Origin: an uncultured Alphaproteobacteria bacterium
GTDB lineage: Bacteria; Pseudomonadota; Alphaproteobacteria; RF32; CAG-239
NCBI GenBank assembly: GCA_944391505.1
Contig: CALXTV010000001.1
Location: 34,651-98,650 of the forward strand
DNA: 64,000 nt
Direction: 5' to 3'
The position numbers were made by a program, and so were the translations under genes. Below are positions 14,514 to 34,723 of this stretch, piece after piece. The first letter of the stretch is position 1; every line of letters begins with the position of its first letter. The notes under the pieces were generated by a model. That model had not been told where the DNA came from. It did no database searches and saw only the letters and a program-made list of their open reading frames with translations.

Positions 14514-14749
14514 CGGATACGAAAAAAGACGCTGTTATCTAGCGTCTTTTTAATCAAAATGGCGGAGAGATAGGGATTACTCTGCGCTAAAGCTTGAGTT
14601 GCACAGGCACTCATCGGCTTTCCAAGCCGACCGGCGTACTCCCGTCCGCCTTTCGCTGGTAGTCGAACCCTATCTCTAGGGTTCAAATCCAACCTTCCTC
14701 ATCATTTACAACAAAACCCGCACAAGGCGGGCTTTGTTGTAAATGGCGG
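14514..14749. repeat. Left 236-bp direct repeat (island boundary; contains tRNA-Ser 3' fragments and two hairpins)
   Basis: Matches 34488-34723 at offset 19974 with one substitution (ttatctagcg vs ttatccagcg); ends in TGGCGG, the reverse complement of the tRNA 3' end. Confidence 0.97.
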
Positions 14750-14808
14750 TGTAGTAAACCTCAACGGTATTAAGCATACTAAATCAAAAACACTCCAATC
14801 CCAAATAA

Positions 14809-14935
14809 CAGGGAATCTACAGGGAATTTTATCTTGTTTCTCTCCCCTCATACCACCATATTTACCTTGAATTGCTTAGCTTACCAAAACATCTCTCCCT
14901 AAATTATCAGGGAATTTAAAATTAAATACAGGGAA
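14809..14935 (+). repeat. Four CAGGGAA motifs at the island left end (possible recombinase accessory sites)
   Basis: CAGGGAA at 14809, 14820, 14908 and 14929; inverted TCCCT at 14896. Confidence 0.5.
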
Positions 14936-15018
14936 AATTTACAATTAGGAATTGCTTTTTGCAAAGTACAATAGTAACAATATATATTATTGATTATTGA
15001 AAGAATTAGGAAACAAAA

Positions 15019-16778
15019 ATGAGTTTTCAAGCGCCTTTAACAATTAAAAAAGCCCTAGAAAGAATAGATAAGAGAGAACTATTACTACCTGCAATCCAAA
15101 GAGAATTTGTATGGAGTGCAGATGATATAGAATTATTATTTGATTCTTTAATGTGCGATTTTCCAATAAACTCATTCCTTTTCTGGAAGGTAGATAATGC
15201 TGAGAATAAAAATCAGTATAAATATTACCAATTTCTAACTAAATATATTGAATATTACCACGAAACTGCTGATTCTTTTAATACAAATGGAGTAAATGAC
15301 TTTTGTGCTGTACTGGATGGACAACAAAGACTAACAGCGCTATATCTTGGGCTAAAAGGATCTTATGCATATAAAAAACCTTATGCTCACTGGGATAATT
15401 TAGATAACTATCCAGAACGAAAATTATATTTAGATATCTGGAAAAAATATAAAGAATATACAGAAGAAGAACATAAAAATATTGCTGAATATGATGATGA
15501 AAGAGAATATGGCTTCTACTTTTTAACAGAACAAGAGTTTAATAACTTAGGTGGTTCCTCACGTTTCTTTAAAGTAGGAGACATTTTAACAGAAAATACA
15601 AAGATGTATCCTGTCTCATAAAAACATTAGAAGAACAGTTTCCCAACAACAAATTTGCTCATGATACCATAGCAAAGTTATATGAGATTATTTATAACAA
15701 ACCTTTAATCAACTATTATCTTGAAGAAACAGAAGATTATGATAAAGCACTAAAAATCTTTATAAGAACAAATAGCGGAGGAGAAAAATTATCTTTTTCA
15801 GATCTGCTAATATCTACAATTATTTCAACTTGGACTTCCGTTGATGCAAGAACAGAATTTAATAATTTAGAAAAAGAAATAAAAAACATGGGATTTTATA
15901 ATTTTTCGAAAGAATTCATTGTTCGATGCGCTCTCCTCGCTTATAGCAAAGATATAAAATTTAAAGTTAATAATTTATCTTCTGAATGTTTATTTCAATT
16001 TGAAAAAGAATGGAATTCTGAAGGAGGGTTAAAGGCTACAATTAAAGAAGCTTTTACATTATTAAAAAATTACGGCCATAATGATAATACAATTACATCA
16101 TACAATGCAATTGCCTTAATTGTTTATTATTTAAATCACTCTGGAAAAACCAAACAATTTTGTGATAAGGTGGCGTATAAACAAGATAGACTTATTATTT
16201 TAAAATGGCTAAATATTGTATTTCTAAAAAAGATATTTGGAGGCCAATCTGATTCAATTTTAAAAGAGATTCGTGATGTAATACAAAGATCTAAATCTCG
16301 TAACTTTCCTCTAGAAGAAATAAAAGAGAATCTAGAAGGAAAAAGAAAATCATTAAAAGTTGATAATGAATTTATAGAGAGCTTATTGTTTGAACAAAAG
16401 GAATCTAGATATGCCTTTCCAATTTTATCTTTACTATATGATGGTTCAGATTATAGAGCAACAAAGCACAAAGATCACCTTCACCCCGAATATTGCTTTA
16501 GCAAAAAAGAACTTAAGAAACTAAATCTGTCAGAGGATGACCTCAAATTCTATCAAGATAAAAATAACTGGAATAGCATTCTAAATCTTCAATTACTTTA
16601 TGGTAATGACAACGAAGCAAAAAATAAAAAATCTTTAAAAGAATGGATAGAAAAAAACAATATAAATTGTAAAGAACAGCTAATCCCTTCTAAATTTATC
16701 GATATTAAAGATTTTCGTAAATTTATTGAAGAACGCAAAAAAATCCTTACACAAAGGCTATTAAAAGCATTTGAATAA
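15019..16778 (+). pseudogene. DUF262 + DUF1524/HNH (GmrSD/SspE-like) nuclease with a single frameshift
   Basis: LPAIQREFVW and VLDGQQRLTAL in 15019-15621; the -1 frame continues KDVSC...IFIRTNSGGEKLSFSDLL into ORF 15888-16778 (HKDHLHP, NWNSILNLQLL); frames join near GAAAATAC at 15592-15599. Confidence 0.85.
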
Positions 16779-16788
16779 AAATATTTCT

Positions 16789-19218
16789 TTATGGTAAAAA
16801 CTTATTCAATTCGAATCTAAAAAAGTCATCCGAAGCATTTTTATATTCTAAAAATTTTTCATTATAAGTTAAATTTTTATATTCATCTATTGACAAATTA
16901 CATATTTGGTCATCTTTAACTAATTTATTTATAACATGCAAACTTAATCCCAATTTGCTTAAAGATAATATTAAAGGATCGTTTGTGCCATATACCAAAT
17001 CATTATAAAGTTGCTGAGATATAAGTTCATAATCTAACATTAACTGAAAAAACTTATTTAATTTAAAACTGATAAAGTCATCTTCTAACTTTATTTTTAT
17101 TATAGATAAATTAACTATATAAGAATAATTTTTCGACCTAAGATTGACATAGAAATTATTATAACCGGAAATATTACCTCTATCATCACATTCTCCATAA
17201 GATGACCCAACATATAGAAAAGGATTTGTACTTAATCTTTTAATGCGATATAAATATCTTGCCGTTAACGAAATTTTTTCTTTCAATGAAAGTTTTCGAT
17301 GTTTAACTATTAATTTATGATAATAATTTCTACTTATTTCATTATCCAAACGTTTAAATTCATCGTCTTTAATTAAAGCATTTAATTGACCGATAAAAAC
17401 ATAATTTAGCAAATCAAATACATATCTTTGATCAGAAAGAGTTCCATATCTTTCTTTATATCTACTAATTCTTAGCCAAATCTCAGAACATAAATCATTT
17501 GAAAGATTATAAATTGTATTCATGCTAAGCTTTAGCATATTTTGTTTAAGTAATAAAATATTATCGTCTGTCTCCTGAAATATAAAATTTTCATTATTAA
17601 TTATCTCTTCCAGTACTACTTTTTCTTCTATTTTTTTATTTTCAATATTAAAGTTATCTAGTAATGGATTTTGAATGTCATCCTGAAAATCAGACGTTTT
17701 TAAAAGTTTTATTTTATTTTCCATACTACAAGTACAAAATTCCCCATGATTTTCAACAAAATGCACCTTAGGCATCAATTTGGATAAATCATCAATAGAG
17801 TTTGTAAATACCATATTTAAACGATTAACTCGTCCTATTAAATTTATTAAAGAATTTTTATTTAAATTACGAGAATCTACTATAAACAATGAGTCAAAAG
17901 GTAAATTAATGCCTTCTAGTATCACATTATTTGCAATCAGGTATTTTATCTGCGGAATTCTATTAAACTTAAATTCCAAATAATCTTTTATATCATCCGG
18001 TAACTTTCCATGAATATAAATGATTCCTTTCTGCAAATACTTAGACACATAAAAATCTTTATGAACATGTTTATTAAGACTTTCAATAACCTGATGAATT
18101 TCAGGACAATCAATTTCTTGTGATATAGTTTCAAACAAAGTCTTCGCAAAATGTTCAATTTTACGAGGAGTATATAAATATATAAAATTTTTATCAGTAG
18201 CTTTATTTTCTATATATTGCAAATAACTTCCGTCAAAATGAGCATCTTTAATTAAAGCGTTAAAAAAACGGTTATAAATAAAAACATCTCCGTTATCTGC
18301 ATATTCGTATACTATAGGAACTTTAATATTGAAAGCTATTTTATACTCCCGTATTTCCTGATCTGATAAAGAAATGTTTTTACTATCTTGTACTAATGGC
18401 GATAAATATAACATTTTTGCACGATTATTTCTATGCTTTACTAACCTTATAAGCCTAGCTAATAAAATGCTTCTATCAGTATTTTCTAATAATTTATGAG
18501 CTTCATCCACATATAAAATATCAAAACACAAACTATTGTATTTTTCCAACAATCTTAAAGCTCTTTCTTGAGTAAATACTGAGATAAAACAATTGTCGCT
18601 TTCATTATACATTTCATCATGTATTAACACACGAATACGAGGGAATGCCTTTTTTATATTCCTATACGTCTGCATCAATAGTGATTTTGTAGGAACAATT
18701 ACAGCTATTTTACTATAAGTATTAATATGTTGTTTTATATGTTCTATAATAAGTTTACTTTTTCCAAAAGACGTTGGAGCAATATAACTTACATATGATT
18801 GATCCGTAGATAATAGCTCTTTTCTTGATATATTTTGTTCTTTTGTTTCGATAATACCGTCATTACCAAAAAAAGTCTCGGTAGCTACAGTTAAAGTTTC
18901 AGTAGTTATATCAGATATTATTCCCTTATTGTTTATAATAGCATTTGAGATTGGGTAAAATCCAAAATTTACAGATAAATCATATAATGGTTGCCAATCA
19001 TGAAATAAAATTGAATATTTTAATATAATAAAATATGCCAATTCAAAAGAAGTTTTATAACTTTTATCTTTTTGATATTGCTTTATTAAAACAATAGCTA
19101 AACTTAAAACAAACTGTTTTTCTGCATTATCTAAATGCTGAGATAGAAATAATTTATTTATAACATTTTGAATGGAGGAAATAGTTTTAAGATTTGATAT
19201 TTTTGTGGCTTCACTCAT
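16789..19218 (-). CDS. SF2 DEAD/DEAH helicase, Hachiman HamB-like
   Basis: APTSFGKS, VDEAH, IHGKLP, ILEGINLP, IGRVNR; overlaps the upstream nuclease gene by 8 bp. Confidence 0.7.
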   Translation of the reverse strand: MSEATKISNLKTISSIQNVINKLFLSQHLDNAEKQFVLSLAIVLIKQYQKDKSYKTSFELAYFIILKYSILFHDWQPLYDLSVNFGFYPISNAIINNKGIISDITTETLTVATETFFGNDGIIETKEQNISRKELLSTDQSYVSYIAPTSFGKSKLIIEHIKQHINTYSKIAVIVPTKSLLMQTYRNIKKAFPRIRVLIHDEMYNESDNCFISVFTQERALRLLEKYNSLCFDILYVDEAHKLLENTDRSILLARLIRLVKHRNNRAKMLYLSPLVQDSKNISLSDQEIREYKIAFNIKVPIVYEYADNGDVFIYNRFFNALIKDAHFDGSYLQYIENKATDKNFIYLYTPRKIEHFAKTLFETISQEIDCPEIHQVIESLNKHVHKDFYVSKYLQKGIIYIHGKLPDDIKDYLEFKFNRIPQIKYLIANNVILEGINLPFDSLFIVDSRNLNKNSLINLIGRVNRLNMVFTNSIDDLSKLMPKVHFVENHGEFCTCSMENKIKLLKTSDFQDDIQNPLLDNFNIENKKIEEKVVLEEIINNENFIFQETDDNILLLKQNMLKLSMNTIYNLSNDLCSEIWLRISRYKERYGTLSDQRYVFDLLNYVFIGQLNALIKDDEFKRLDNEISRNYYHKLIVKHRKLSLKEKISLTARYLYRIKRLSTNPFLYVGSSYGECDDRGNISGYNNFYVNLRSKNYSYIVNLSIIKIKLEDDFISFKLNKFFQLMLDYELISQQLYNDLVYGTNDPLILSLSKLGLSLHVINKLVKDDQICNLSIDEYKNLTYNEKFLEYKNASDDFFRFELNKFLP

Positions 19219-19963
19219 TCTCAGCTCCTAAATACTGCATAAACATTTCATAACTATTTTGAGTAACACAAATAACATGAATTTTTTTTCCTTGTAATAT
19301 AGAAATTCTCTTAATTGATTGTACTATTTCATCATGATTCTGTGGCGTCCAAACTCCATTCAAAAATATTGTTGCACTTGGTATAATGTTATTGTCATCA
19401 ATACTTTGATAACGATGATTGATAAAATCATCTGACAAACTTTTTAATCTATCTCTCAACTCTTTTTTAGTTCCTACTGCTCTTGCATGATTATATGCAT
19501 TCAACCAAGGATTATTACTCACTTCTGTAGTTATTTTTGCTTTGACGTCATTATACGCTTCTCTTATCTTAGAGGCATGCGTTATACCAGAAGTAGTTAT
19601 CAATCCAGATTTACTTTCCATAAACCAAAGATCATCTTCTATAGAATACAATCCATCGAATCCCTTTTTCAAAGAATTTTCCTCAAGATTAAAAAATAAA
19701 CACTCTTGTTTATAGCCTTTATATTTTAAATATAAATGTATAAAAAACTCCGCTATAGAGCCTATTATTTTGTTTTGATCTCCCCATCTTTCTATGCGGC
19801 CTTTTAAATCCAATTTTATGGTTGATAGATCTCCGTCTTCTCCAATACATATTTGATGAATATTTTCATCAATAAACTGTTTCAATTCCTCTGTAATAGT
19901 TTCAATATCAATTACACTTATTTCAATTTTATCGTCCACTGTTTGTGTAACATTAAATACCAT
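19211..19963 (-). CDS. PD-(D/E)xK nuclease, Hachiman HamA (DUF1837)-like
   Basis: IAEFFIH...KKGFDG...LWFMESKS; coupled to the helicase. Confidence 0.6.
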   Translation of the reverse strand: MVFNVTQTVDDKIEISVIDIETITEELKQFIDENIHQICIGEDGDLSTIKLDLKGRIERWGDQNKIIGSIAEFFIHLYLKYKGYKQECLFFNLEENSLKKGFDGLYSIEDDLWFMESKSGLITTSGITHASKIREAYNDVKAKITTEVSNNPWLNAYNHARAVGTKKELRDRLKSLSDDFINHRYQSIDDNNIIPSATIFLNGVWTPQNHDEIVQSIKRISILQGKKIHVICVTQNSYEMFMQYLGAENE

Positions 19964-19986
19964 TATTTCAAATTCCTTTAAACAAT

Positions 19987-20172
19987 TTAGTAATATTGCT
20001 CAATGTATTGATATACCTTATCTAAGACGTCTTTATCTTTTATTTTATATTTTATCCAGATGATACTACGTAAGGCTTTTTTGATCTCTTGTTTTCCGGT
20101 TGTTGTATCCTGCCAATCTGGAAAACGCACATATTTCACAATATCATCCATATTATTAATAATCCGTTCCAC
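19987..20172 (-). pseudogene. C-terminal remnant of a type I restriction subunit HsdR
   Basis: VERIINNMDDIVKYVRFPDWQDTTTGKQEIKKALR...YQYIEQYY* resembles the HsdR C-terminus; in-frame stop a few codons upstream. Confidence 0.65.
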
Positions 20173-20255
20173 ATTATCTTCGAAAAAATCTAAACCTCAA
20201 ATATTCTGCCCATTAGTAGGAATCCCTTAATGATGCCCCCATAAGAGAATGAAAC

Positions 20256-21260
20256 TTATTCAATTTCATTCATCTCTTCAAATAGATACGGAGCTACAGA
20301 GATTTCCTTTTGTTTTTCAACTTTTCTTTTAAATGCCTCTATATTTTTACTAATCTCCATAAGAGCTGAAACCCTACCAATCTGTAAAATAAGGATATTT
20401 CTTCCCTCTTCAGTTAACCACCTATGAAACTGAGCAATTCTTTTTCCATCTTTTTTTATATTCTTCTTATTAAGTTCTTCTTTTATATATCCGTGTTCTA
20501 TTGGCTCATACACATATTTATTTATAAAGTTTCCATAATACATCGGCCTTTTACGAGAAATAGTGATTCCGTTATTATAAAGACGATCTAGTTCAGCAAA
20601 AAAAGCATCCGGAAATGTTTTAATCCATTTTTGTAAACCTTCTTCAATATATTTTGCTAACAATATCCTTAATGCATCGTGTTTTCTGTCATATTGGTAA
20701 CCCGTTGCTTCGTCAATTAATGCATCTATACCAACTTGAGCAAAAGCCATTAATAGAATTTCAGATTTCTCTGCAAGTTTCTTTTGTGAAGCTGTTAATT
20801 GGTTGTCTCTACGTGCATTGAGATAAACTTCACACATTTTAGGTAATATACTAGCCAAATAACCTGTTTTTTCTATAGACCCATCAATATATGTGATTGG
20901 GGTGGCTTTCTCAATAACTTCTGAAGTTATATATTTTTCTAAGTTTTTTGCGGCCAAAAATGGAGGTATTTTTGTTCCTTCAATTTCGAGCCTTGAATTC
21001 ATACCTTTTCTAGTTCGATCAAAAGCATTAAATATAGATGTTGCGGTTAAAACTCTCCGACCATCATCTAATACAGCACAATCTATTTCCACATCGCCAA
21101 TAGGAAGCACTCCAGTATATAGAGTCTTAGGAAAATTGCTTTCATTAGTAGCACTTTTTTGCCATCTTGATTGTGCCGCTTTTACTGCTATCTCTCTACG
21201 TTGTTCTGATGATAATTTTTTTGCTCTAACCTTACCACCTTTAATTTGATTTACATTCAT
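20256..21260 (-). CDS. P63C domain protein
   Basis: KGGKVRAKKLSSEQRREIA N-terminus; GIDALIDEATGYQ; WIKTFP; RPMYYGNFINKYVYEP; FHRWLT. Confidence 0.8.
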   Translation of the reverse strand: MNVNQIKGGKVRAKKLSSEQRREIAVKAAQSRWQKSATNESNFPKTLYTGVLPIGDVEIDCAVLDDGRRVLTATSIFNAFDRTRKGMNSRLEIEGTKIPPFLAAKNLEKYITSEVIEKATPITYIDGSIEKTGYLASILPKMCEVYLNARRDNQLTASQKKLAEKSEILLMAFAQVGIDALIDEATGYQYDRKHDALRILLAKYIEEGLQKWIKTFPDAFFAELDRLYNNGITISRKRPMYYGNFINKYVYEPIEHGYIKEELNKKNIKKDGKRIAQFHRWLTEEGRNILILQIGRVSALMEISKNIEAFKRKVEKQKEISVAPYLFEEMNEIE

Positions 21261-21413
21261 ATTTATACCTCTTTTTTATGCTTGCTGATATTTTTTATAT
21301 TGCATGCTTGCTATAGAGTCAAGAATTTTTCTTTTAACTAATTTAATGATTGTGTTTTCAATAATCGCCAGTATAATTTCAATATATTAGTAAAAACAAC
21401 ATAGGAAATAGCT

Positions 21414-22127
21414 ATGACTGAGGCAGAAAAAAGAGAAATACTAGCAAAAGCAAAGGATTTTTTTAGAGAGAAAATTGTTGATAATCATAAAAGGAATACA
21501 GAAAGATTAGGTAAATTATCGGCTTTTCAACCGAATCCTTTTTTAGAAAAATATCTAGCAAACTTTGCTTTTGGTAATTGTAACGCTTCTAGCATAGCAA
21601 AGGCTCTAATATATCCTAGGGTTTTAGGAACATCAATAAATACTACATTCGGTACACAAATGCAGGCTTTTTGCAAAGATGTGCTTAGTGGTTTTGCATC
21701 CACTACTCCTGGTATAGATATTGAATTTATTGACCAAATAGATAATCGCCGCAAATATTGCCAAATAAAAGCTGGGCCTAACACCATTAATAATGATGAT
21801 ATTACAACTATTAAAAATCATTTTGAATCTATTCGTCGTATAGCCCGCACCAATGGTTTACGCGAATTTAATGCTGATATTGATTGTATTGTTGGTGTTT
21901 TTTATGGAAAAAGTGATGATTTATCACAAATGTATCGGACAATTGATCGTTCGCATCCAGTATATGTCGGCAAAGATTTTTGGCACCATTTAACCGGGGA
22001 TCCCAGCTTTTATGATGAATTAATAAATGAAATTGCGTCTATTGCAACAGAGGTCGATGGAACCGAATTATTAAATAATGCAATTAGGCAGCTATCTACA
22101 GAAATAGAAGAAAAATATAATCAATAA
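21414..22127 (+). CDS. Type II restriction endonuclease (PmeII-family-like)
   Basis: LIYPRVLGTSINTTFG, GIDIEFID, YCQIKAGPNTIN; directly upstream of a C5-MTase. Confidence 0.75.
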   Translation: MTEAEKREILAKAKDFFREKIVDNHKRNTERLGKLSAFQPNPFLEKYLANFAFGNCNASSIAKALIYPRVLGTSINTTFGTQMQAFCKDVLSGFASTTPGIDIEFIDQIDNRRKYCQIKAGPNTINNDDITTIKNHFESIRRIARTNGLREFNADIDCIVGVFYGKSDDLSQMYRTIDRSHPVYVGKDFWHHLTGDPSFYDELINEIASIATEVDGTELLNNAIRQLSTEIEEKYNQ

Positions 22128-22219
22128 CGATATTTTAACTTATCTACAGCTATCCTAATAACCCTTGCATATATGCAAGGGTTATTTTATTGTTCCTTTA
22201 TTGAATCAAGGAGTGTCTT

Positions 22220-23464
22220 ATGCAGTTATCTATTCATGAAGTTAGCCAAAAACTTAATCTTTCAATCGATACAATCAGAAGATGGGAGAAAAAAGGCCTG
22301 ATAAAAGCAGAAAGATCGGATAAAAACCATAGAATCTTTGATGAAGATGAAGTAAAAGTACTTCTAAAAAAATTAAACGACAAATCTGAAGCAGAATTTA
22401 AAGTATTAAAAAATGAAATACCCTCATCTTATACAGCAATAGAGTTGTTTGCCGGTGCAGGAGGGACAGCTCTAGGCTTCGAAAATGCTGGAATACACCA
22501 TGTACTTCTAAATGAATTTGATAAAAACTGCGTAGAAACCTTAAGAAATAACTTCCCTAAAGGCACAAATATTGTTCATGCTGATATACATAATGTCGAT
22601 TTTTCATCTTGGAAAGGTAAAGTTGATATCGTGCAAGCTGGTTTCCCTTGCCAAGCCTTTAGTTATGCGGGAAAAAGCATGGGGTTTGAAGACACACGAG
22701 GAACACTATTTTTTGAATTTGCAAGATGTGTTAAAGAAACAATGCCAAAGATTGCTGTTGGAGAAAATGTCAAAGGATTATTAAAACATGATAATGGCAG
22801 AACTCTTCAAACTATGATAAATACGCTAACAGAACTTGGTTATAATGTAAGATATAAGCTGTTAAGAGCGCAATATCTTGATGTTCCACAAAAAAGAGAA
22901 CGTTTAATTATAATAGGAATTAGAAAAGATTTAGATTTACCTTTCATTTTCCCTAAAGAAAAAAATTATACAGTCTCTTTAAGAGCTGCATTGAAAAATT
23001 GCCCAAAATCAGAAGGGCAAAGCTATCCAAAAAGAAAAGCTGAGATTCTTTCTCAGGTTCCAGAAGGTGGATATTGGAGAGATCTTCCAATAGAGTTACA
23101 AAAAGAATATATGAAAGGAAGTTTTTACCTTTCTGGAGGAAAAACTGGTATGGCAAGACGCCTTTCTTGGGATGAGCCAAGCCTAACCTTGACCTGTGCT
23201 CCTGCACAAAAACAAACAGAAAGATGTCATCCTGAAGAAACTCGACCATTAACTATTAGGGAATACGCCAGAATCCAGACATTCCCGGACACTTGGGAAT
23301 TTAAGGGATCTATGGGAGCTCAATACAAACAAATAGGGAATGCTGTACCAGTAAATTTAAGTTATCACATTGGCCGCTGTTTGATTGCTATGCTTGATAA
23401 AAACTATGATATTGAAGATGCTGTTATTGAAGATAATACAAGCCATTTATCTAAAGCTGCATAA
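22220..23464 (+). CDS. DNA (cytosine-5)-methyltransferase with N-terminal MerR-type HTH
   Basis: ELFAGAGG, GFPCQAFS, ENVKGL, PQKRER, RIQTFPD, KQIGNAVP; N-terminal SIDTIRRWEKKGLI. Confidence 0.95.
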   Translation: MQLSIHEVSQKLNLSIDTIRRWEKKGLIKAERSDKNHRIFDEDEVKVLLKKLNDKSEAEFKVLKNEIPSSYTAIELFAGAGGTALGFENAGIHHVLLNEFDKNCVETLRNNFPKGTNIVHADIHNVDFSSWKGKVDIVQAGFPCQAFSYAGKSMGFEDTRGTLFFEFARCVKETMPKIAVGENVKGLLKHDNGRTLQTMINTLTELGYNVRYKLLRAQYLDVPQKRERLIIIGIRKDLDLPFIFPKEKNYTVSLRAALKNCPKSEGQSYPKRKAEILSQVPEGGYWRDLPIELQKEYMKGSFYLSGGKTGMARRLSWDEPSLTLTCAPAQKQTERCHPEETRPLTIREYARIQTFPDTWEFKGSMGAQYKQIGNAVPVNLSYHIGRCLIAMLDKNYDIEDAVIEDNTSHLSKAA

Positions 23465-23589
23465 CTTTAAATATACAGATGCTTATGTGCAAAGAGATAA
23501 TTATCTACAAGTTAAAAAATATATTAATAAAGTAAGAAATATAGATCTTAATGCTTAAGCATCCAGAAAATAATAGAAAAATACTTGAG

Positions 23590-24000: not shown

Positions 24001-24030
24001 TAATAAAATAAAAATCTATAGGCTAACATA

Positions 24031-26133: not shown

Positions 26134-26144
26134 GGACAAAGTAA

Positions 26145-26843
26145 ATGGATTTAAAAAACAACTTAGAACTTATAATCGGTGGTATTGCATCTACTGTCGC
26201 CATGGCCGCAATTATTTTTAGATTTGTCTTTTTTGAAATAGATTTAAGCACAACAGCTGATTTTATAAAAGACTTTTCAGAAATTATTGTATCGGTTTTA
26301 GTCTTTTTTGTTGCCGTTAAAAGTATCTTAAGCCAGAGTAAAAAAAAGGAAACTTTCAAAAAAGTTTTTGATGAAGAGCTTCAAGCATGGATGCAACGCA
26401 ATCGCCCACTGATTTCTAAAGAGAACCGTTTTCAGGTTGAAAATGCTGACAGATATTTTATTTTGTCGGATCATGATCACATTTTTGATATTGGAGAAGA
26501 TTTTCAAGACGACAAAAAGTATCAAAAAGGTGTGTTTGTTCAACTTCCCCACACATTTACAACTAATGATAAAATTATTTTCTTTATGAACAAAAGTACA
26601 TTTATGGCACGAGCCAAGGCTAAAGACAGTAATGTAGAGGCAGAAATAGATAAACTCATATATCGAACAGCAAATTGTATTAGTGCCAAATTTGGTAAAG
26701 AATTATTTGAGGCAAGTGGAGATCCCAAACATCATCAAATCCATGTTAAAATAAAGACCCGAGATCTTGATACACCTGAAGATGCTCGAACAATAATAAA
26801 AATGCTTGATTATGTAATGATTTTATACTTAGCAGCAGCTTAA
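26145..26843 (+). CDS. Hypothetical protein with two N-terminal TM helices
   Basis: Hydrophobic segments LIIGGIASTVAMAAIIFRFVFF and IIVSVLVFFVAV followed by a soluble domain. Confidence 0.7.
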   Translation: MDLKNNLELIIGGIASTVAMAAIIFRFVFFEIDLSTTADFIKDFSEIIVSVLVFFVAVKSILSQSKKKETFKKVFDEELQAWMQRNRPLISKENRFQVENADRYFILSDHDHIFDIGEDFQDDKKYQKGVFVQLPHTFTTNDKIIFFMNKSTFMARAKAKDSNVEAEIDKLIYRTANCISAKFGKELFEASGDPKHHQIHVKIKTRDLDTPEDARTIIKMLDYVMILYLAAA

Positions 26844-26872
26844 ACTTCAACTCAAACCGAAAGGAAAAAGAC

Positions 26873-27175
26873 ATGAGAAATTTTAAAATAGAAAGAACCG
26901 GAGTCGTTCGAGATGAAAGAGGAATGAAAGTTGGTACGGTTCAAAGAAATACCCTAAGAGATGCTAGAGGATCCCGCCTCGCAGAAATATCTGGAGATAG
27001 AATCAAGGATAGTCGAGGTTTAACTTTAGGAGAAATTAGCGGCTCAAGAATAAAAACGAGACGAGGAAATACAGTTATGGAAATTGATAAAATTCCTCTT
27101 GATTACGAAATGCCAGTTTCTCCGGCAATGGCCGCAGCAATCATGCATTTTTTTATCAAACCGATTTTTGATTAA
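26873..27175 (+). CDS. Small beta-repeat protein (beta-flower-like)
   Basis: About four ~15-aa repeats: VRDERGMKVGTVQ / LRDARGSRLAEIS / IKDSRGLTLGEIS / IKTRRGNTVMEID; SD GAAAGG. Confidence 0.6.
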   Translation: MRNFKIERTGVVRDERGMKVGTVQRNTLRDARGSRLAEISGDRIKDSRGLTLGEISGSRIKTRRGNTVMEIDKIPLDYEMPVSPAMAAAIMHFFIKPIFD

Positions 27176-27197
27176 AATTTCAGCTTAGTTATAATTG

Positions 27198-27227
27198 AAA
27201 ATGCCGAGTACTTACTCGGCATTTTTT
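27198..27227 (+). terminator. Intrinsic terminator ending the four-gene operon
   Basis: AAAATGCCGAGTA / TACTCGGCATTTT hairpin with T-run. Confidence 0.8.
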
Positions 27228-27341
27228 GTTATACAATGGAAAACAACGTATATAATATACATAAATACACTTAAATAAAAGTATTGACATTTATAATATA
27301 CTTTGATATACATAAGCACATAAGAAGGTAAGGAGGGCTCT

Positions 27342-27707
27342 ATGGCATTTGAAAAATTTATTATCCAAACCAAAAAAAACTTCCCAACTGCATCAATTTC
27401 AACGCTCGGAAGACTTAGCCTGAATGAGGCTGCAATCTCTGCTTTTGGCTTACAAACAAAAAACTTTGCAGAACTTTTTTACGATTCGGAAAAGGCGCTT
27501 ATTGGCATAAAATTTTTGAATTCAGAGACAGAAAACAGTCTAAAAGTCCAAAGACGTGACAACTCCGGTATGTTTTTATCGGTTAAAAGCTTCTTCAAAG
27601 CCTATCAGATTGACTACTCAACTACATATTTTTGTGAAGTATCACAAGATGAAAAGGATAAAGACTTTTTGATAATAAACTTAAACACCAAGACAGAAAG
27701 GAGATAG
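27342..27707 (+). CDS. Hypothetical protein
   Basis: 121-aa ORF with SD AGGAGG and upstream TTGACA-17-TATACA. Confidence 0.7.
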   Translation: MAFEKFIIQTKKNFPTASISTLGRLSLNEAAISAFGLQTKNFAELFYDSEKALIGIKFLNSETENSLKVQRRDNSGMFLSVKSFFKAYQIDYSTTYFCEVSQDEKDKDFLIINLNTKTERR

Positions 27708-27901
27708 ACCAATGAACTGTTGACAATAAAAAAAAGAGGTTAAGAAACCGCTATTTCCCAACCTCAGAAGAAATGTTAAAAATTAACATCTCCAATCAAG
27801 AGTTATCTTAACATTTCTCCGAATAAAATCAATCTTTTTTTACTTATACCATTTGCGGTTTAGGTACAAATTCATTTTTTCAATAAGAAAGGAGAAAGTT
27901 A

Positions 27902-29224
27902 ATGGACAATTCATTAATTATTGAAAATATAAACCTTACTTCGTTAAAAACATATCATAACAATGCCAAAGTACATAATGAAGAGCAGCTTCAAGCCTTA
28001 GCTTCGTCAATTAAACAATTTGGCTTTAATTCCCCCATTTTGATTGATGAGAAAAACGAAATCATTGCCGGGCATGGCCGATTAGAAGCTGCCAAAATTG
28101 TCGGATTGACAGAAGTTCCTGCCATCAGGCTAACTCATTTGTCTGAAGTTCAAAAACGTGCATACCGTCTTGCTGATAACAAAATTGCTGAAAAAGGCGG
28201 ATGGAATGAAGACATTCTCAAACTTGAACTTTCTGAGTTAGAAAGCATGTGTAATGATTTTGACATAACGATCACCGGTTTTAGTTCTGTCGAGTTAGAT
28301 GTGTTGCTTGATGATACCGGCAATTCACATAAAATTGATAAGCAGCTTAACACTGATCCTTTTGTTCCTGAAAATGAAATAATTACGCAGCCAGGAGATA
28401 TTTGGCACCTTGGCAATCATCGGATTATCTGCGGCAATTCTCAAGATGAAGAAACCTTCTCAAAATTGATGCAAACTCAAAAAGCAAAGATGGTTTTGCA
28501 AGATCCTCCTTTTAATGTTGCCATTAACGGACATGTTTGCGGAAGCGGCAAAACCAAGCATAAAGAATTTGCTTTTGCCTCTGGTGAAATGACTGATGAT
28601 CAATTTATCAAATTTTTAGAAACAAACTTCAGACTTTGCGCCTCTTTTTCACAAGAAGGCTCTCTTCACTATAACTTTATGGACTGGCGACATATTCTTC
28701 ATATATCGGTTGCAGGAAAAAATGTTTTTGACTCATTGATTAACCTTTGTGTGTGGAACAAAGGAACTGGCGGCATGGGAAGTCTATTCCGTTCAGGATA
28801 TGAACTGTGTTTTATTTTCAAAAAAGGAAATAAAAGTCACACTAATAATGTTGAGCTTGGCAAAAATGGTCGCTACCGAACAAATGTTTGGAATTATCCC
28901 GGAGTAAATAGTTTTGGTCGTCATCGACAAGACTTAAAAATGCATCCGACAGTAAAACCCGTAGAAATGCTTTATGATGCTATTTTAGATGTAACCAAGC
29001 GTGGTGATTTAGTTTTAGATTCGTTTTTAGGTTCTGGCTCAAGTTTAATTGCTGCCGAGAAAGCACACAGGATCTGCTATGGCATTGAATGCGAGATGCT
29101 TTATATCGATACCACAATCAGACGTTTTCAAAATATCTTCAAGATTGATGCTGTCCGTGAAAAAGACGGTAAGACATACAATCAATTATTGGAAGAACTA
29201 AAATCAGGAGACACTCATGACTAA
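27902..29224 (+). CDS. ParB/Srx N-terminal domain fused to an N4/N6 DNA methyltransferase
   Basis: SIKQFGFNSPILIDE..IIAGHGRLEAA; QDPPFN; HPTVKP; VLDSFLGSGS. Confidence 0.92.
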   Translation: MDNSLIIENINLTSLKTYHNNAKVHNEEQLQALASSIKQFGFNSPILIDEKNEIIAGHGRLEAAKIVGLTEVPAIRLTHLSEVQKRAYRLADNKIAEKGGWNEDILKLELSELESMCNDFDITITGFSSVELDVLLDDTGNSHKIDKQLNTDPFVPENEIITQPGDIWHLGNHRIICGNSQDEETFSKLMQTQKAKMVLQDPPFNVAINGHVCGSGKTKHKEFAFASGEMTDDQFIKFLETNFRLCASFSQEGSLHYNFMDWRHILHISVAGKNVFDSLINLCVWNKGTGGMGSLFRSGYELCFIFKKGNKSHTNNVELGKNGRYRTNVWNYPGVNSFGRHRQDLKMHPTVKPVEMLYDAILDVTKRGDLVLDSFLGSGSSLIAAEKAHRICYGIECEMLYIDTTIRRFQNIFKIDAVREKDGKTYNQLLEELKSGDTHD

Positions 29225-29603
29225 TAAGACTTATGATGTTGGCTATTGCAATCCACCACAACATTCCCGCTTTCAGAAAGGGAAAAGCGGCAATCCTTCG
29301 GGGCGCCCTAAGTACAGCCGAAATACGTATAAGCTATTGGAAGATATTTTGGAGCAGAAGGTTTCAATCGTCCAAGATGGTAAGCAAATCAAAATTTCAA
29401 AAAAGGTAGCGATTCTTTTGCAGGCAGTCAATTCTGCGGTTAAAGGCGATACAAAAGCCATCCGCGATTTATTTCCTCATTTGTTGGCTGTCGATGCCAG
29501 ACAAGAAGAGAAAGAACAAAAAAGAGCTTCACTTAAAGCTGATGATTTAAGCATAATTAATAATTTTTTGCAAAATAAGGAGACCGAAAATGGTGAACTT
29601 TAA
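29217..29603 (+). CDS. DUF5681 protein (possible small-terminase analogue)
   Basis: YDVGYCNPPQHSRFQKGKSGNPSGRPK. Confidence 0.75.
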   Translation: MTNKTYDVGYCNPPQHSRFQKGKSGNPSGRPKYSRNTYKLLEDILEQKVSIVQDGKQIKISKKVAILLQAVNSAVKGDTKAIRDLFPHLLAVDARQEEKEQKRASLKADDLSIINNFLQNKETENGEL

Positions 29604-30087
29604 TCTAAACAAAACAAAATCAATACTTTTTTTAGAACAAATAAGTCACAATGCTTCTTCTCCGAAGCAACTACTGCAAAATCTTGCAAAAGATTTCCGG
29701 TCGTTGAGTTCAGAAGAACAAAAAGATTTTCAGCAATTATTGCTTGATATGCTTGATAAAACTTGCAGTTTGAAAAAGATAAAAATTGCTCAGGATGCCG
29801 AAAGTAAAGTAAAAAGACCTGAATTTCCTAAAGACATTTTTGAAAAATTGCTTTGGGAATTACAAGACAAACCATCTGAATATATTGAACCTCGGCTGGA
29901 GATGATGCGAGCTTGTCTTTCTTTTCCATCGGGCAAACAATCTAAAACAGCATCAAGCGCCATTCAAGAAATGAAGTTGAGCTTATCTCACAAAGGTTTT
30001 TCATTAGCTAAAAAACGCAACGTCTTCTTAAGATGTTTGTACGAAACATTTTTACTTCAGGAGCTGTACAATGATATCGATGAATAA
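29590..30087 (+). CDS. Hypothetical protein
   Basis: 165-aa ORF overlapping both neighbours. Confidence 0.6.
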   Translation: MVNFNLNKTKSILFLEQISHNASSPKQLLQNLAKDFRSLSSEEQKDFQQLLLDMLDKTCSLKKIKIAQDAESKVKRPEFPKDIFEKLLWELQDKPSEYIEPRLEMMRACLSFPSGKQSKTASSAIQEMKLSLSHKGFSLAKKRNVFLRCLYETFLLQELYNDIDE

Positions 30088-31597
30088 CCAAGACTTGCTT
30101 AAGGCCATTTTACGTTCAGATCTAAAATCATTTGTCACAAAAGTGTTTTTTGATGTATCACCCTCGGCTCAATATCTTGATAATTGGCATATTGATCTTA
30201 TTTGCCAAGAATTAGCACAAATGATAAATGGTCAAGAAACGCGTTTAATAATTAACATTCCACCACGATATTTAAAATCCATAATCTGTTCGGTTGCGCT
30301 TCCGGCTTTTATTTTAGGACATAATCCGCAAAGCTCTATTATCTGCGTAAGTTATTCGGATGATTTGGCGGCAAAACATGCTAATGATTGTCGCAGAATA
30401 ATTACCTCACAATGGTATCAAGAGCTATTTCCCGAAACAGTGTTAAGCAGCAATAAAAAATCAACATCAGATTTTGAAACTACTAAAGGAGGTGGAAGAT
30501 TTTCTACCTCCATAAACGGCACATTAACCGGACGAGGAGCTGATTGGATTATAATTGACGACCCCATAAAACCGACAGATGCAATGTCAGATAATATCAG
30601 AGATAAAGTTAACGACTGGTACCGATCAACACTATATTCCCGTCTCAACAATAAAGTTGAAGGAAAAATCATTCTGATTATGCAGCGCTTACATGAAAAT
30701 GACATGACCGGATTTTTGCTTGAAAGCGATAAAAAGTTTAAACTCATCAAACTCCCCGTCATTGCGGAAGAAGACGAAACATGGATTTTAAAAAATCAAT
30801 TTACACAAACAACGCTTACAATCGAGCGACATCCTGGAGATCTTTTGCATCCACAGAGAGAAAACCTTGAAACGATTAAAGAATTGCAAGATTCTTTAGG
30901 CGAATTTGCCTTTGCAGGGCAATACCAACAAAATCCCGTTCCCCAAAGTGGTGGAATGGTAAAAAAGGACTGGATGTACTTTTATAATGAGCTGCCAGCA
31001 TTAAAGCAAATCATTTTGTCTTGGGATACGGCAAGTAAAGATGGCTTTGACAATGCATATTCTGCATACGTCTTACTTGGTGTTGATTACAACCGCAAAT
31101 ATTATTTGATAGAAGCTAATCGCTATCGGCTCAATTTTCCAGAACTAGTAAAAACAGTAGATAGAATGAATGATCAATGTATTGATTTATTTAAGCAAAA
31201 GCCGGATATCCTTATTGAAGATGCCACATCCGGGACACAACTTATCCAAGTTTTAAGAGGAGAATATGGTCTATCTCCACATGCAATCAGAGCCGAGCAA
31301 GACAAAATTTCACGTATGCAAGCGGTATCTCTAGCAATAGAGCAACAAAGACTGTTATTTCCTAATCAAGCCGGAATATGGTATCAAACTTTTGAAAAAG
31401 AGCTTTTAACATTTCCAAAATCAAGATTTAAGGATCAATGTGATGCCTTGAGTCAAGCAGTGTGCTTTTTATCTTCAGAGATACAAAATCCGCAAATCAA
31501 ACCATATATAGCCACCGGCAATCATTTTTACACTAGTGGACATCGATCAACCTATAAAGTACATCCTATGCGAGATCCAAGGAAACTAAGACATTAA
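30071..31597 (+). CDS. terL: Phage terminase large subunit
   Basis: IINIPPRYLKS, GRGADWIIIDDP, FAGQYQQNP, SWDTA, KDQCDALSQ. Confidence 0.9.
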   Translation: MISMNNQDLLKAILRSDLKSFVTKVFFDVSPSAQYLDNWHIDLICQELAQMINGQETRLIINIPPRYLKSIICSVALPAFILGHNPQSSIICVSYSDDLAAKHANDCRRIITSQWYQELFPETVLSSNKKSTSDFETTKGGGRFSTSINGTLTGRGADWIIIDDPIKPTDAMSDNIRDKVNDWYRSTLYSRLNNKVEGKIILIMQRLHENDMTGFLLESDKKFKLIKLPVIAEEDETWILKNQFTQTTLTIERHPGDLLHPQRENLETIKELQDSLGEFAFAGQYQQNPVPQSGGMVKKDWMYFYNELPALKQIILSWDTASKDGFDNAYSAYVLLGVDYNRKYYLIEANRYRLNFPELVKTVDRMNDQCIDLFKQKPDILIEDATSGTQLIQVLRGEYGLSPHAIRAEQDKISRMQAVSLAIEQQRLLFPNQAGIWYQTFEKELLTFPKSRFKDQCDALSQAVCFLSSEIQNPQIKPYIATGNHFYTSGHRSTYKVHPMRDPRKLRH

Positions 31598-31653
31598 TAA
31601 AACTTGACTTAAGACAATGAAAGAGCCTTCATGCAACAATATGGAGGCTCTTA

Positions 31654-31911
31654 ATGTATAAAAAACCGCCTATAGCACACCAATTTCAAAAAGGAAAATC
31701 TGGAAATCCGAATGGTCGACCCAAAATCTCCGATTCGGCACTATTTGATTTGACTTCCTTGTTTTTGCAAGCGTTACTGTTAGCAAGGAACAAAGATAAA
31801 AGTTCCCGAGACAAATTAAGCAAAATAAGGGAGATTTTGTATGAAAAGGAAAATTCATCTACCCAAAAACATCGAAGAGCTAAAAAAATTATCACAAAAA
31901 AAGCAGGCTGA
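31654..31911 (+). CDS. Second, short DUF5681-motif protein
   Basis: KPPIAHQFQKGKSGNPNGRPK; SD GGAGG. Confidence 0.6.
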   Translation: MYKKPPIAHQFQKGKSGNPNGRPKISDSALFDLTSLFLQALLLARNKDKSSRDKLSKIREILYEKENSSTQKHRRAKKIITKKAG

Positions 31912-32293
31912 GCTTTGGGAGCGTTATGTAAACAGCCCTTACAATCACCAGCTTAGAGCATTGTGGTATTATATTGCTTGCGAAAATGCCAATCTTAAGA
32001 TTGAACGCAAACACCTAATTAAGTTAGAAAAATATGCTGAAAACCCTGATGAATGTATGATTAAGGTATACAAAACCAAATATAACCTTCATCCGGGAAC
32101 AGAAATTACTAAAACCTTCCGCAACCATCAATACAAAGTTATTATAAATGAAGCAAATGATTTTATTTTTGAGGGCAAACATTATAAAACTCTATCGGCG
32201 GTTGCCAAAGAAATATGTGGAATAAAAGTATCAGGCTATGACTTCTTTGGCTTAAACAACAAACGAGCATTAAAGGAGGCAACACATGACTAG
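31841..32293 (+). CDS. DUF2924 protein
   Basis: PGTEITKTFR...FIFEGKHYKTLSAVAKEICGIKVSGYDFFGL; directly upstream of the recombinase. Confidence 0.8.
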   Translation: MKRKIHLPKNIEELKKLSQKKQAELWERYVNSPYNHQLRALWYYIACENANLKIERKHLIKLEKYAENPDECMIKVYKTKYNLHPGTEITKTFRNHQYKVIINEANDFIFEGKHYKTLSAVAKEICGIKVSGYDFFGLNNKRALKEATHD

Positions 32294-33917
32294 AATAAAT
32301 TGTGCCGTCTATGTTCGTAAATCTACCGAAAAAGGATTGGAGCTTGAGTTTAATTCATTGCATAATCAAGAAGAAGCATGCCGAAGCTATATATTATCAC
32401 AAGCCTTTAACAACTGGGAATATTTCAAAACTTATACCGACGGCGGCATTTCCGGTGGCACTATGGAACGTCCGGCCTTAAAACAAATGCTTGAAGATAT
32501 TCGACATGGATTAATACAGACAGTGGTGGTTTATAAAGTCGACCGTTTATCCCGCTCAATTATGGACTTCCATAATATGATGAAAGAATTTGATAAATAT
32601 GGTTGCAGCTTTGTTTCAATTACTCAAGCCTTTGACACGTCGACTTCCATGGGCAAGCTAACGCTAAACATGCTGCTATCATTTGCTCAATTTGAGCGAG
32701 AGGTGTCTTCGGAACGTGTCCGTGATAAAATCCGTGCCAGTAAAGCCAAAGGCCTATGGACTGGAGGAATACCTAAACTAGGTTATGATATTATAGATAA
32801 AAAACTGGTCATTAATCCCGTCGAAGCCGAACAGGTGCATAGCATTTTTGAAGACTATCTGCAATGTAGCTCGCTGGCGGAGCTTGAGAAATTTGCTGAA
32901 ATAAAAGGTTTCAAACATAAAAGCTGGATAACCAACAAGGGGGAACAGAGAGGCGGAAAACCTTTTAAAATATCCGCGCTCCACCGCTTGCTGCATGAAA
33001 AATTATACCTCGGCATGATTGAGAACAAACGCACCGGACAAGCATTTAAAGGACAGCATGAAGCTATCATATCAAAAGATCTGTGGGAAAAGGTACAAAA
33101 CAAGCTCAAAGAAAATGACAACAGCTCTAATCATACAAGGAACAGAAACAATAATCTGCTGACTGGAAAACTGTTTGATGCTAACGGCACAATTTTTACC
33201 AATCAGGCCAACAGTAAAAAGAAAGCTACCAAACGACATTACTATTCTATTAAGGGTTTGTTCCTACCCACGGAGCAAATTGATAAGCTCGCTAAAGATG
33301 CCATTATTGAGATTCTTAACGGCAATCTCAATGGCTTAAACAAAGACAGCGCAATGGCTTTAAAACTGATAAACTTCAACGATATGGACTATTTCGCGCA
33401 ACGCAATTTTATCCGCAACTTCATCAATAAAATCATCTATCAAAAAGATCTCTTAACCTTCTTCTTTAATACCGATCCGATAATCCTCTCGGCCTATACC
33501 GGCGATTCGCTGAATGAAAGCAACAACCCGCTGGAAGTTATTGCTGATAATACCAACAACCAAATCATCTATGAAAAACAGGTCATCATCAACCGAGGGC
33601 TGTCAAGCAATGTCTACAACGCCGGAAAGGTCGGACTGATGAGCATCAATGACAACAACCGCCTGATCGTCAGAGCCTTTGCCTATGCATGGAAATTTAA
33701 GAAACTATATGAAAAAGGCATCCGGATGGAAGACATCATGAAACAGGAGAAAATGACCAAGCGTACAATTTACAAATATCTCAACCTTGCTTATCTCTCG
33801 CCAAGAATAGTCAATCAACTTCTCTCCGGAACACTAACCATCAATCTGCAAACTCTTTTCGATATCGCCTCTAAAAACCTAAGCTTTGAAGAACAGGAAA
33901 AAGAAATATTTCAGTGA
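32286..33917 (+). CDS. Large serine recombinase (resolvase + recombinase domains)
   Basis: CAVYVRKST, DGGISGGTMERPAL, VYKVDRLSRS, FAQFEREVSSER. Confidence 0.95.
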   Translation: MTRINCAVYVRKSTEKGLELEFNSLHNQEEACRSYILSQAFNNWEYFKTYTDGGISGGTMERPALKQMLEDIRHGLIQTVVVYKVDRLSRSIMDFHNMMKEFDKYGCSFVSITQAFDTSTSMGKLTLNMLLSFAQFEREVSSERVRDKIRASKAKGLWTGGIPKLGYDIIDKKLVINPVEAEQVHSIFEDYLQCSSLAELEKFAEIKGFKHKSWITNKGEQRGGKPFKISALHRLLHEKLYLGMIENKRTGQAFKGQHEAIISKDLWEKVQNKLKENDNSSNHTRNRNNNLLTGKLFDANGTIFTNQANSKKKATKRHYYSIKGLFLPTEQIDKLAKDAIIEILNGNLNGLNKDSAMALKLINFNDMDYFAQRNFIRNFINKIIYQKDLLTFFFNTDPIILSAYTGDSLNESNNPLEVIADNTNNQIIYEKQVIINRGLSSNVYNAGKVGLMSINDNNRLIVRAFAYAWKFKKLYEKGIRMEDIMKQEKMTKRTIYKYLNLAYLSPRIVNQLLSGTLTINLQTLFDIASKNLSFEEQEKEIFQ

Positions 33918-34354
33918 TTAAGTTTATACAAAACTATCTTATTTATAATATAAAAAATTTCCCAAGATAAATCATTATAAAGCATCAAAAGTGTGTCATT
34001 TTCGTAGAATGGATAAAAAATACCTTCTTTTTCAAATCCCAAAGAAAATACATCAGCATGCATCAATAAGTTTCTTATTTTTCTTACACTCAAATTTTCA
34101 TTATTAAGAAAATCAAATTCCTTTCCATCTATAATATTTTGGGTAAACAATGTTTGTAGAACATTGTAAAACTTCATATCATAATTCTCAATAACTGATT
34201 TCGATACATTTTCAAATACATTAAATAAAACATTTAAGCAAGCTATTCCTTGACCTTCTTTATACAGAATTTCACACGTTTGTAAAGATTGAGCGTAATA
34301 GTGAGAATATTGCCAAACATTATCTATTATAGCATTTTTATCTACTCCTTGCAT
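33911..34354 (-). CDS. Hypothetical protein with a HEPN-like RxxxxH motif
   Basis: RKIRNLLMH; N-terminal helix with NVFENVSK. Confidence 0.55.
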   Translation of the reverse strand: MQGVDKNAIIDNVWQYSHYYAQSLQTCEILYKEGQGIACLNVLFNVFENVSKSVIENYDMKFYNVLQTLFTQNIIDGKEFDFLNNENLSVRKIRNLLMHADVFSLGFEKEGIFYPFYENDTLLMLYNDLSWEIFYIINKIVLYKLNH

Positions 34355-34487
34355 ATTTTCCTCTCAAGTGACTCTCCCAAAATCGGCAATGTATGTAACT
34401 GCCGGAAATTTTGCACTTTCCAACATAAAACGAGCTTACCATAGTCATTTCGGCAAAGTCAACCGCCGACAAAGCCAGCGTTTCCGC

Positions 34488-34723
34488 CGGATACGAAAAA
34501 AGACGCTGTTATCCAGCGTCTTTTTAATCAAAATGGCGGAGAGATAGGGATTACTCTGCGCTAAAGCTTGAGTTGCACAGGCACTCATCGGCTTTCCAAG
34601 CCGACCGGCGTACTCCCGTCCGCCTTTCGCTGGTAGTCGAACCCTATCTCTAGGGTTCAAATCCAACCTTCCTCATCATTTACAACAAAACCCGCACAAG
34701 GCGGGCTTTGTTGTAAATGGCGG
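34488..34723. repeat. Right 236-bp direct repeat, overlapping the tRNA-Ser 3' end
   Basis: Copy of 14514-14749. Confidence 0.97.

Follow-up and report, generated by a model that had tools for sequence, protein, structure and literature searches.

A serine-integrase island at the end of a tRNA-Ser gene of a gut alphaproteobacterium, in a probable stack with gene-less units at T-loops and a CRISPR-Cas cassette

Introduction

This report concerns a stretch of 64,000 nucleotides (the window; positions are counted from its first letter) on contig CALXTV010000001.1 of assembly GCA_944391505.1, and a genomic island that lies in it between a CRISPR (clustered regularly interspaced short palindromic repeats)-Cas locus and a transfer RNA (tRNA) gene, tRNA-Ser(CGA). 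The host genome, G000 below, is a metagenome-assembled genome (MAG) of an uncultured gut alphaproteobacterium, 1.74 Mb in 36 contigs; named relatives are Ca. (Candidatus) Scatocola and 'Azospirillum sp. 51_20'. The element is a serine-integrase island with an unusual target, the end of a tRNA gene, and it is stacked with gene-less units that sit at tRNA T-loops and with what is probably a stranded CRISPR-Cas cassette. In our reading the window is probably a stack of mobile elements built by serial accretion at the 3' end of tRNA-Ser(CGA). The 236-bp direct repeat that flanks the island is local and composite, and would then be a by-product of this accretion and not a 230-bp attachment site.

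Ends of the Island across the Family

A scan with the large serine recombinase of the island returned 37 loci at 50–98% identity. At 25 or more of the 37 loci, the right junction runs from the recombinase through a spacer (segment A) and a terminator hairpin (segment B) directly into the 3' end of a tRNA-Ser gene with the anticodon CGA, GGA or TGA, and the recombinase in these loci always adjoins the tRNA-side end. The left junctions comprised 10 from the genomes with recombinase loci and 69 from human-gut metagenome contigs fetched by the left-end motif. All 10 + 69 of them read TGGCGG and then [T/A]GTAGTAAA. In the window, the left end (segment G) begins at 14750 with TGTAGTAAACC.

The whole set of about 79 left and 27 right junctions, with their unrelated outer flanks, has only TGGCGG in common. 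Flank classes were counted on the 61 metagenome left junctions with at least 300 nt of flank: other, native-like terminators precede the core in 37 (at least eight unrelated sequence classes, judged by eye), hairpin B in 22, meaning tandem islands or attP, and in two the flank is a C-D unit (described below) as in this window. Because the sequence before TGGCGG varies between junctions, the island ends share only this 6-bp core (7 bp where G begins with A), and such a short core fits a large serine recombinase. An earlier note on this DNA had proposed that the island attaches by duplicating 230 bp downstream of the tRNA. The junctions do not support that proposal: the 27 right and about 79 left junctions share TGGCGG and nothing more, and what lies left of the core is a pre-existing terminator of one of the eight or more classes or a tandem hairpin B. 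The note's placement of the junction with the tRNA in the last 6 nt of the gene, on the other hand, is borne out across the family.

The loops of hairpin B differ widely between islands of the family. Judged from the junctions, hairpin B comes with the island and takes the place of the terminator that the tRNA had before. No convincing dyad symmetry was seen around the core of the reconstructed attP and attB, and the crossover dinucleotide is therefore left unnamed. When IMG/VR was scanned for attP-type junctions, the sole match was a chance one within a thymidylate-synthase gene.

The Recombinase

The recombinase has the catalytic and Recombinase domains of a large serine integrase. Its Resolvase domain (PF00239, E 1.9e-40) spans residues 7–157, contains the serine nucleophile S13 in the motif VRKST and matches the catalytic domain of the TP901-1 integrase at E 3.4e-23; the Recombinase domain (PF07508, E 3.5e-14) follows at residues 178–277, and the A118 integrase chain aligns to residues 157–334. 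The protein reads LFDANG...HYYS where relatives have the zinc-ribbon ligands CxxC...YYxC, and the zinc site seems, from these residues, to have been lost. A Pfam scan of 20 island open reading frames (ORFs) found no tyrosine recombinase (PF00589) among them, in agreement with the earlier claim that a large serine recombinase is the only recombinase of the island. The genome has five PF00589 genes, located either on different contigs or, on this contig, some 110 kb past the island. The gene for a DUF2924 protein overlaps the start of the recombinase gene, and the two are kept together across the family; it is a speculation that DUF2924 could be an accessory or directionality factor.

A Composite Direct Repeat

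A repeat search of the window found one 236-bp direct repeat around the island (14514–14749 and 34488–34723), which in 64 kb is far beyond any chance expectation. Compared base by base, 235 of the 236 positions are the same, the sole mismatch (14540 T, 34514 C) lying in the loop of hairpin 1; upstream, 7 further bases (TTTCCGC) match if one 1-nt indel is allowed. The repeat of about 230 bp plus the last 6 nt of the tRNA that the earlier note described is thus real, and so are its two hairpins, which take the form of strong intrinsic terminators on the strand of the tRNA gene (z −4.4 and −7.6). It was also said to share only the last 6 nt of the tRNA. This is right at the edge of the repeat, where the right copy overlaps tRNA-Ser(CGA) by 6 nt only (plus-strand TGGCGG; CCGCCA when read with the tRNA), but wrong for its content: inside each copy there is an exact copy of the 19-nt tRNA 3' end, from T-loop to CCA (14560–14578 and 34534–34552; the tRNA's own is 34718–34736), as well as another piece of the T-arm of 10 nt. 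Rfam matched nothing on the 236-bp repeat except the tRNA itself.

Read on the plus strand, each copy consists of B (46 nt, hairpin 1), C (the 19-mer TGGCGGAGAGATAGGGATT), D (165 nt, with hairpin 2 at its end) and the core TGGCGG. With a slash for the left junction, the order in the window is tracrRNA (trans-activating CRISPR RNA) - 7 nt of A - B-C-D-TGGCGG / G ... recombinase ... A-B-C-D-tRNA. At the right-hand C, the match to the tRNA ends after 19 nt, whereas related loci run from A-B straight into the tRNA-Ser 3' end. Since the present island sits between two C-D units, the repeat resolves into B, contributed by the ends of two islands, followed by C, D and the core. The true island ends would accordingly be placed by the family junctions at about 14750 and 34533–34539, not at 14514 and 34723. 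The GC content between the repeat copies is 24–39%, against about 47% in the flanks.

Gene-less Units at tRNA T-loops

Segment D is present at tRNA-Ser(CGA) in island-free sister species, and so it is not part of the island. Three of these (G001, G004 and G005) have a coding sequence, a terminator, one or two C-D units and then tRNA-Ser(CGA), with a syntenic right flank; the C-D units of G004 are two in tandem. A further genome, G012, has B-C-D-tRNA without an island. D-like units were found in 15 of the 18 searched genomes of the host's family and in none of 13 genomes of other families.

The unit combines a conserved ~86-nt core with a T-arm palindrome, an inverted tRNA 3' end that has decayed, and terminator hairpin 2. 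Units of this kind (about 165–185 nt) occur 3' of at least 12 different tRNA genes, each with tRNA-specific flanks around the core, which is located at the T-loop breakpoint. The palindrome is built from the T-arm of the unit's own tRNA, its loop often being GNRA on the tRNA strand, and one internal hairpin of the core shows compensatory changes (covariation). Each unit also carries a tRNA-specific 19-nt 3'-end copy, that is, a displaced tRNA end; at tRNA-Ser this is C, which begins with TGGCGG and retains 13 nt of the tRNA-side arm.

D-like units have no match in Rfam, and the possibilities that the core is a two-piece transfer-messenger RNA, a fragment of a group I or II intron, or a 5S ribosomal RNA were dropped for that reason. 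A tyrosine integrase acting on the units in trans was also considered and rejected, as none of the genome's five PF00589 genes adjoins a D core. Other D-like units of the same genome are at G000 C6:7-308 (two tandem copies) and C15:46227-46347. There is besides a second set of tRNA-linked units (Table 1), in which a tRNA 3'-end copy, a core and a T-arm hairpin are combined, often in tandem; the cores are unrelated to those of D, and the tRNA-Val, tRNA-Pro and tRNA-Glu cores are similar to each other.

A Probably Stranded CRISPR-Cas Cassette

The locus left of the island is a complete type II-C set, with cas9, cas1, cas2, a repeat array and a tracrRNA whose anti-repeat (14406–14431 on the plus strand) is complementary to the CRISPR repeat at 26 of 26 positions. 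The T-run of the tracrRNA ends at 14497, some 16–17 nt before the 236-bp repeat, which agrees with the 17 bp given in the earlier note. The same note had suggested that the cassette was an earlier arrival at the same hotspot, and the comparison with other genomes speaks for this. From the tracrRNA to the array, the window is collinear with G111, G001 and other genomes. In G111, which belongs to another genus and whose Cas9 is 83% identical to that of the window, the order is tRNA-Ser(GGA) - B - full A (about 122 nt) - tracrRNA - cas9 - cas1 - cas2 - array, and then ordinary genes: the cassette abuts a complete island right end. In G001, of the same genus as the host, it is tRNA-Ser(GGA) - single terminator - tracrRNA - cas9. 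Sister species G004 and G005 have 12 kb of metabolic genes between a shared block (window 2–5808) and the tRNA, in place of CRISPR and island.

As the cassette is tied to an island right end at two different tRNA-Ser genes, the CRISPR locus is best read as a remnant of an earlier island, and it probably represents the remains of one of the same family. The remnant keeps the right end only and not both att ends; no second G motif that would bound it was found in the window, and no intact island among the 37 recombinase loci has a cas9 within 10 kb upstream. The Cas9 orthologue of G001 (L067 / G001 C2:4335-7310; 77% identity) has two in-frame stops, and that cassette is therefore probably decaying.

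The Stacking Model and Its Alternatives

We propose that the recombinase joins the island site to the last six bases of tRNA-Ser genes. The putative attP would be B-end / TGGCGG / left end TGTAGTAAACC, and the putative attB terminator tail / TGGCGG / tRNA-Ser acceptor and T arm; a crossover inside TGGCGG would leave the tRNA intact and put hairpin B in the place of its terminator. The II-C CRISPR-Cas genes would have been brought by an older member of the island family, of which the cassette and a right-end scar (7 nt of A, and B) persist. The order of the later events can be pictured in two ways: (a) an ancestor had two tandem C-D units, like G004, and the older and the present island both entered at C pseudo-sites; or (b) the island came first, and a C-D unit was then duplicated or inserted again. 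The near-identity of the two B-C-D copies would point to a recent duplication or to gene conversion. Excision of the present island by the recombinase would be expected to leave two tandem C-D units, and RecA recombination between the 236-bp copies, for which the repeat is a plausible substrate, would leave one; both products would keep the tRNA intact and convergent with the tracrRNA.

Accretion at this kind of site is seen in other genomes as well. Genome G020 has A-B-C-D-TGGCGG / G...A-B-tRNA, and metagenome contig L117 has A-B-C-D-TGGCGG / G. At L023 (A-B-C-[1.6 kb]-tRNA) another element is wedged before the tRNA; L034 has A-B, a partial tRNA and then other DNA; and L052 and L054 are tandem island arrays (A-B-G or repeated B-G). 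In the window itself, as in accretion arrays generally, one target holds at least two elements or remnants one behind the other, and att-type junctions recur.

There is a second scar of the island family in the host genome, without a recombinase, at G000 C22:23203-24936 (L003, L007). Its order is B, about 1.6 kb, and A-B-tRNA-Ser(GGA), and its B loop is unlike both B loops of the window.

Several points weigh against the stack as we read it. Action of the recombinase is deduced from the junctions, and there was no attP circle or same-species empty site among the retrieved sequences. Pfam detected no zinc ribbon in the recombinase, which has no Cys after residue 194. Between the two B copies there is one difference in 46 nt, in a hairpin whose loop is highly variable from island to island; neither route (a) nor route (b) explains this by itself, and gene conversion or a single duplication of A-end-B-C-D is needed. 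A C-D unit between B and tRNA was seen in no other of the 27 right junctions examined, and the proposed C pseudo-site would keep only 13 nt of the tRNA-side arm. Finally, in a MAG, a perfect identity of 209 bp exceeds the usual k-mer sizes, and the path through the repeat consequently rests on the assembler.

Three other explanations deserve consideration. The 236 bp could be a functional block of identity, through which a B-C-D circle entered a chromosomal B-C-D by RecA or site-specific recombination; the island would then have duplicated the region downstream of the tRNA after all. This would account for the 235/236 identity along the whole block and the 7 nt upstream, and its ingredients exist: an island-free B-C-D-tRNA state is found in G012, and a circle excised through the tRNA-proximal TGGCGG would carry C-D. 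We consider it unlikely nonetheless, for the conserved ends (the TGTAGTAAACC end and A-B) are at TGGCGG in about 100 junctions regardless of the outer flank, the long block is found in no other family member, and the capture of C-D would require an excision of the attL x attB type. To our knowledge, such an excision is not canonical for serine integrases.

A good deal less probable is an artefact of assembly, in which the repeat was collapsed or misthreaded, the chromosome reads tracrRNA-B-C-D-tRNA, and the island is a free circle, belongs at another site or exists in a subpopulation. Against it, the SNP (single-nucleotide polymorphism) and the indel segregate with the two different left flanks, the contig contains each of the four junction types separately, and the same junction logic, including C-D-TGGCGG next to the island, appears in the independent assemblies G020, L117 and L124. 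In favour of an artefact are the short-read type of the MAG with its 36 contigs and the fact that a 209-bp perfect stretch yields the same assembly graph for an integrated island as for a circle plus an empty site. Very improbable, and the least credible of the three, is an island bounded by the 19-nt tRNA copies (14579–34552), inserted at the T-loop by a tyrosine integrase in trans, with the serine recombinase as cargo. Exact tRNA 3'-end repeats do flank that interval, in the manner of a classic tyrosine-integrase scar, yet there is no tyrosine recombinase in it and none of the genome's five is near D units. The conserved ends are at TGGCGG, 165 nt from the left 19-mer, while the 19-nt copies flank D units; D is joined to the left end in a minority of genomes, the left end following many flanks but always at TGGCGG; and the recombinase and backbone travel with A-B and the left end.

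Gene Content of the Island

The features of the window are collected in Table 1. About 30 loci of the family share the backbone (ParB-methylase, DUF5681, TerL, DUF5681, DUF2924 and recombinase), with varying cargo. No capsid or tail genes were found in the window. The HEC-05/GmrSD-like gene is in two ORFs, 15019–15621 and 15888–16778, which match profile positions 20–201 and 301–593; about 100 profile positions are absent between them, and it is therefore probably a pseudogene. Compared with L028, L030, L031, L037 and L021 over window positions 23590–31911, the element has a mosaic make-up: in TerL, DUF5681 and the XRE-linked operon it is 96–100% identical to islands whose recombinase reaches only 85–86%, and the closest recombinase (97%, L021) accompanies an inverted TerL of only 48% identity. 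A recombinase 87% identical to that of the window is encoded on MT839917.1, a record of 5.4 kb that is named 'Bacteriophage sp.' and comes from samples of human faeces. From this match, such elements may reach virus-particle preparations, which is consistent with the TerL module.

Table 1. Features of the window, and tRNA-linked units of the second set elsewhere in the host genome (G000)
Feature	Position	Strand	Remarks
CRISPR array	7555-10031	+	~37 repeats of 36 bp, period 66
cas2	10086-10415	-	Pfam Cas2
cas1	10428-11330	-	Pfam Cas1
cas9	11334-14330	-	998 aa; Pfam HNH_4/RuvC_III/Cas9 domains
tracrRNA	14404-14497	+	anti-repeat 14406-14431; terminator T-run ends 14497; fold
Probable remnant of segment A	14498-14513	+	last 7 nt TTTCCGC = end of A at 34481-34487
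B-left, terminator hairpin, island type	14514-14559	-	45/46 same as B-right; putative scar of older island right end
C-left, exact displaced copy of the tRNA-Ser 3' end (19 nt)	14560-14578	-	first 6 nt = TGGCGG core
D-left, gene-less unit	14579-14743		same sequence as D-right
TGGCGG core of island left junction (attL)	14744-14749		
Island proper, ~19.8 kb	14750-34533 (to 34539 with core)	+	24-39% GC
Cargo: HEC-05/GmrSD-like gene, split	15019-16778		
Cargo: Hachiman-like HamB (helicase) and neighbour	16789-19963		
Cargo: P63C	20256-21260		
Cargo: R.EcoO109I + M.C5	21414-23464		EcoO109I-type restriction-modification pair
Cargo: XRE + 4-gene operon	23590-27175		
Backbone: ParB-methylase	27902-29224		
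Backbone: DUF5681	29217-29603		
Backbone: TerL	30071-31597		
Backbone: second DUF5681	31654-31911		
Backbone: DUF2924	31841-32293		
Large serine recombinase	32286-33917	+	543 aa; PF00239 + PF07508; single copy in genome
Right end: orf147	33911-34354		Pfam: no match
Right end: spacer A	34363-34487		
B-right	34488-34533		part of island right end
C-right, 19-nt tRNA 3'-end copy	34534-34552	-	first 6 nt = TGGCGG core of right junction (attR)
D-right, second gene-less unit	34553-34717		hairpin 2 = terminator of live tRNA
tRNA-Ser(CGA), intact	34718-34809	-	ARAGORN; Rfam tRNA 58.9 bits
Second-set unit at tRNA-Asp	G000 C2:36507-36583		
Second-set unit at tRNA-Val	G000 C4:5495-5570		
Second-set unit at tRNA-Pro (CGG)	G000 C18:14646-14722		
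Second-set unit at tRNA-Glu	G000 C21:20252-20327		

Implications

There is a practical side to these results. If island boundaries were called from the longest direct repeat, both ends of this island would come out 184–236 bp off, and it would be given an attachment site that, in our reading, it does not use. As a candidate serine integrase, the recombinase has a natural target that is simple and conserved: the tRNA-Ser end CCGCCA with its terminator tail, which is found in many bacteria. The roughly 100 natural junctions could be used to define attP and attB for a group of gut Alphaproteobacteria that lacks genetic tools. A compact II-C CRISPR-Cas locus may come as the cargo of an island and persist after the island has decayed. 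The 236-bp repeat, in turn, predicts two distinguishable products of loss, so that the stability of the defence cargo becomes measurable.

A more general picture may be offered as a tentative suggestion, though we hold it to be rather doubtful: two unrelated types of element may cooperate, with the T-loop units supplying spare TGGCGG sites and the CCGCCA-specialised recombinase landing there, so that islands stack off the live tRNA and II-C cassettes move as cargo between tRNA-Ser genes and genera.

Comparison with Known Systems

The closest likeness is to the serine-integrase prophages and islands (Bxb1, phiC31, A118 and TP901-1; Int-S of M. abscessus, PMC8092301), with which the element shares the Resolvase and Recombinase domains. 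The enzyme gene near one end is another common trait, as is a short core shared by attL and attR (6 bp here), with no need for long repeats. For comparison, common cores measure 5–8 bp for serine-integrase prophages and 25–76 bp for tyrosine integrases at tRNAs (PMC8092301). The cited serine-integrase cases lie in protein genes and disrupt them, unlike this island: its target is the terminal 6 nt of a tRNA gene, and since it supplies a replacement terminator, that gene remains whole. The C-terminal region of the recombinase also differs from that of relatives with a zinc ribbon in having no cysteines at the expected place. In the literature searched, which did not cover the main integration-site surveys, we found no report of serine integrases that target tRNA ends, and the word tRNA is absent from one large recombinase survey.

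Among phage-encoded proteins, the closest relatives are those of Acidithiobacillus phage AcaML1 (48% identity) and Wolbachia phage WO (41%), in the N-terminal half only; these elements are full prophages, whereas the island has the module of ParB-methylase, DUF5681 and TerL only. Of the papers found, only one, on Wolbachia genomics (PMC11376236), reportedly names both DUF2924 and serine recombinases.

As with the tRNA islands of tyrosine integrases (Islander type), the element is integrated at the 3' end of a tRNA, the gene is regenerated, and displaced copies of the 3' end stay behind. It differs from them in having no tyrosine integrase and in an identity of its ends of 6 bp as opposed to 25–76 bp (PMC8092301), and its 19-nt tRNA copies belong to the D units, not to the island. 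The use of pseudo-attB sites by serine integrases, as with PhiBT1 (PMC5937489), would by analogy explain islands at 19-nt copies and not at the live tRNA, although the pseudo-site in the window, set beside those of PhiBT1, has the core and 13 nt of one arm only.

The window as a whole resembles the arrays formed by tandem accretion and known from cis-mobilizable elements (CIMEs, PMC5704250). In that model integration is followed by decay of the resident and arrival of a newcomer at the retained site, which gives live and decayed elements arrayed at one target. The stack at tRNA-Ser(CGA) has this arrangement, but two mechanistically different types alternate in it, the recombinase islands at the CCA end and the gene-less units at the T-loop, and its decayed element, unlike those of CIME arrays, has retained a complete CRISPR-Cas cassette.

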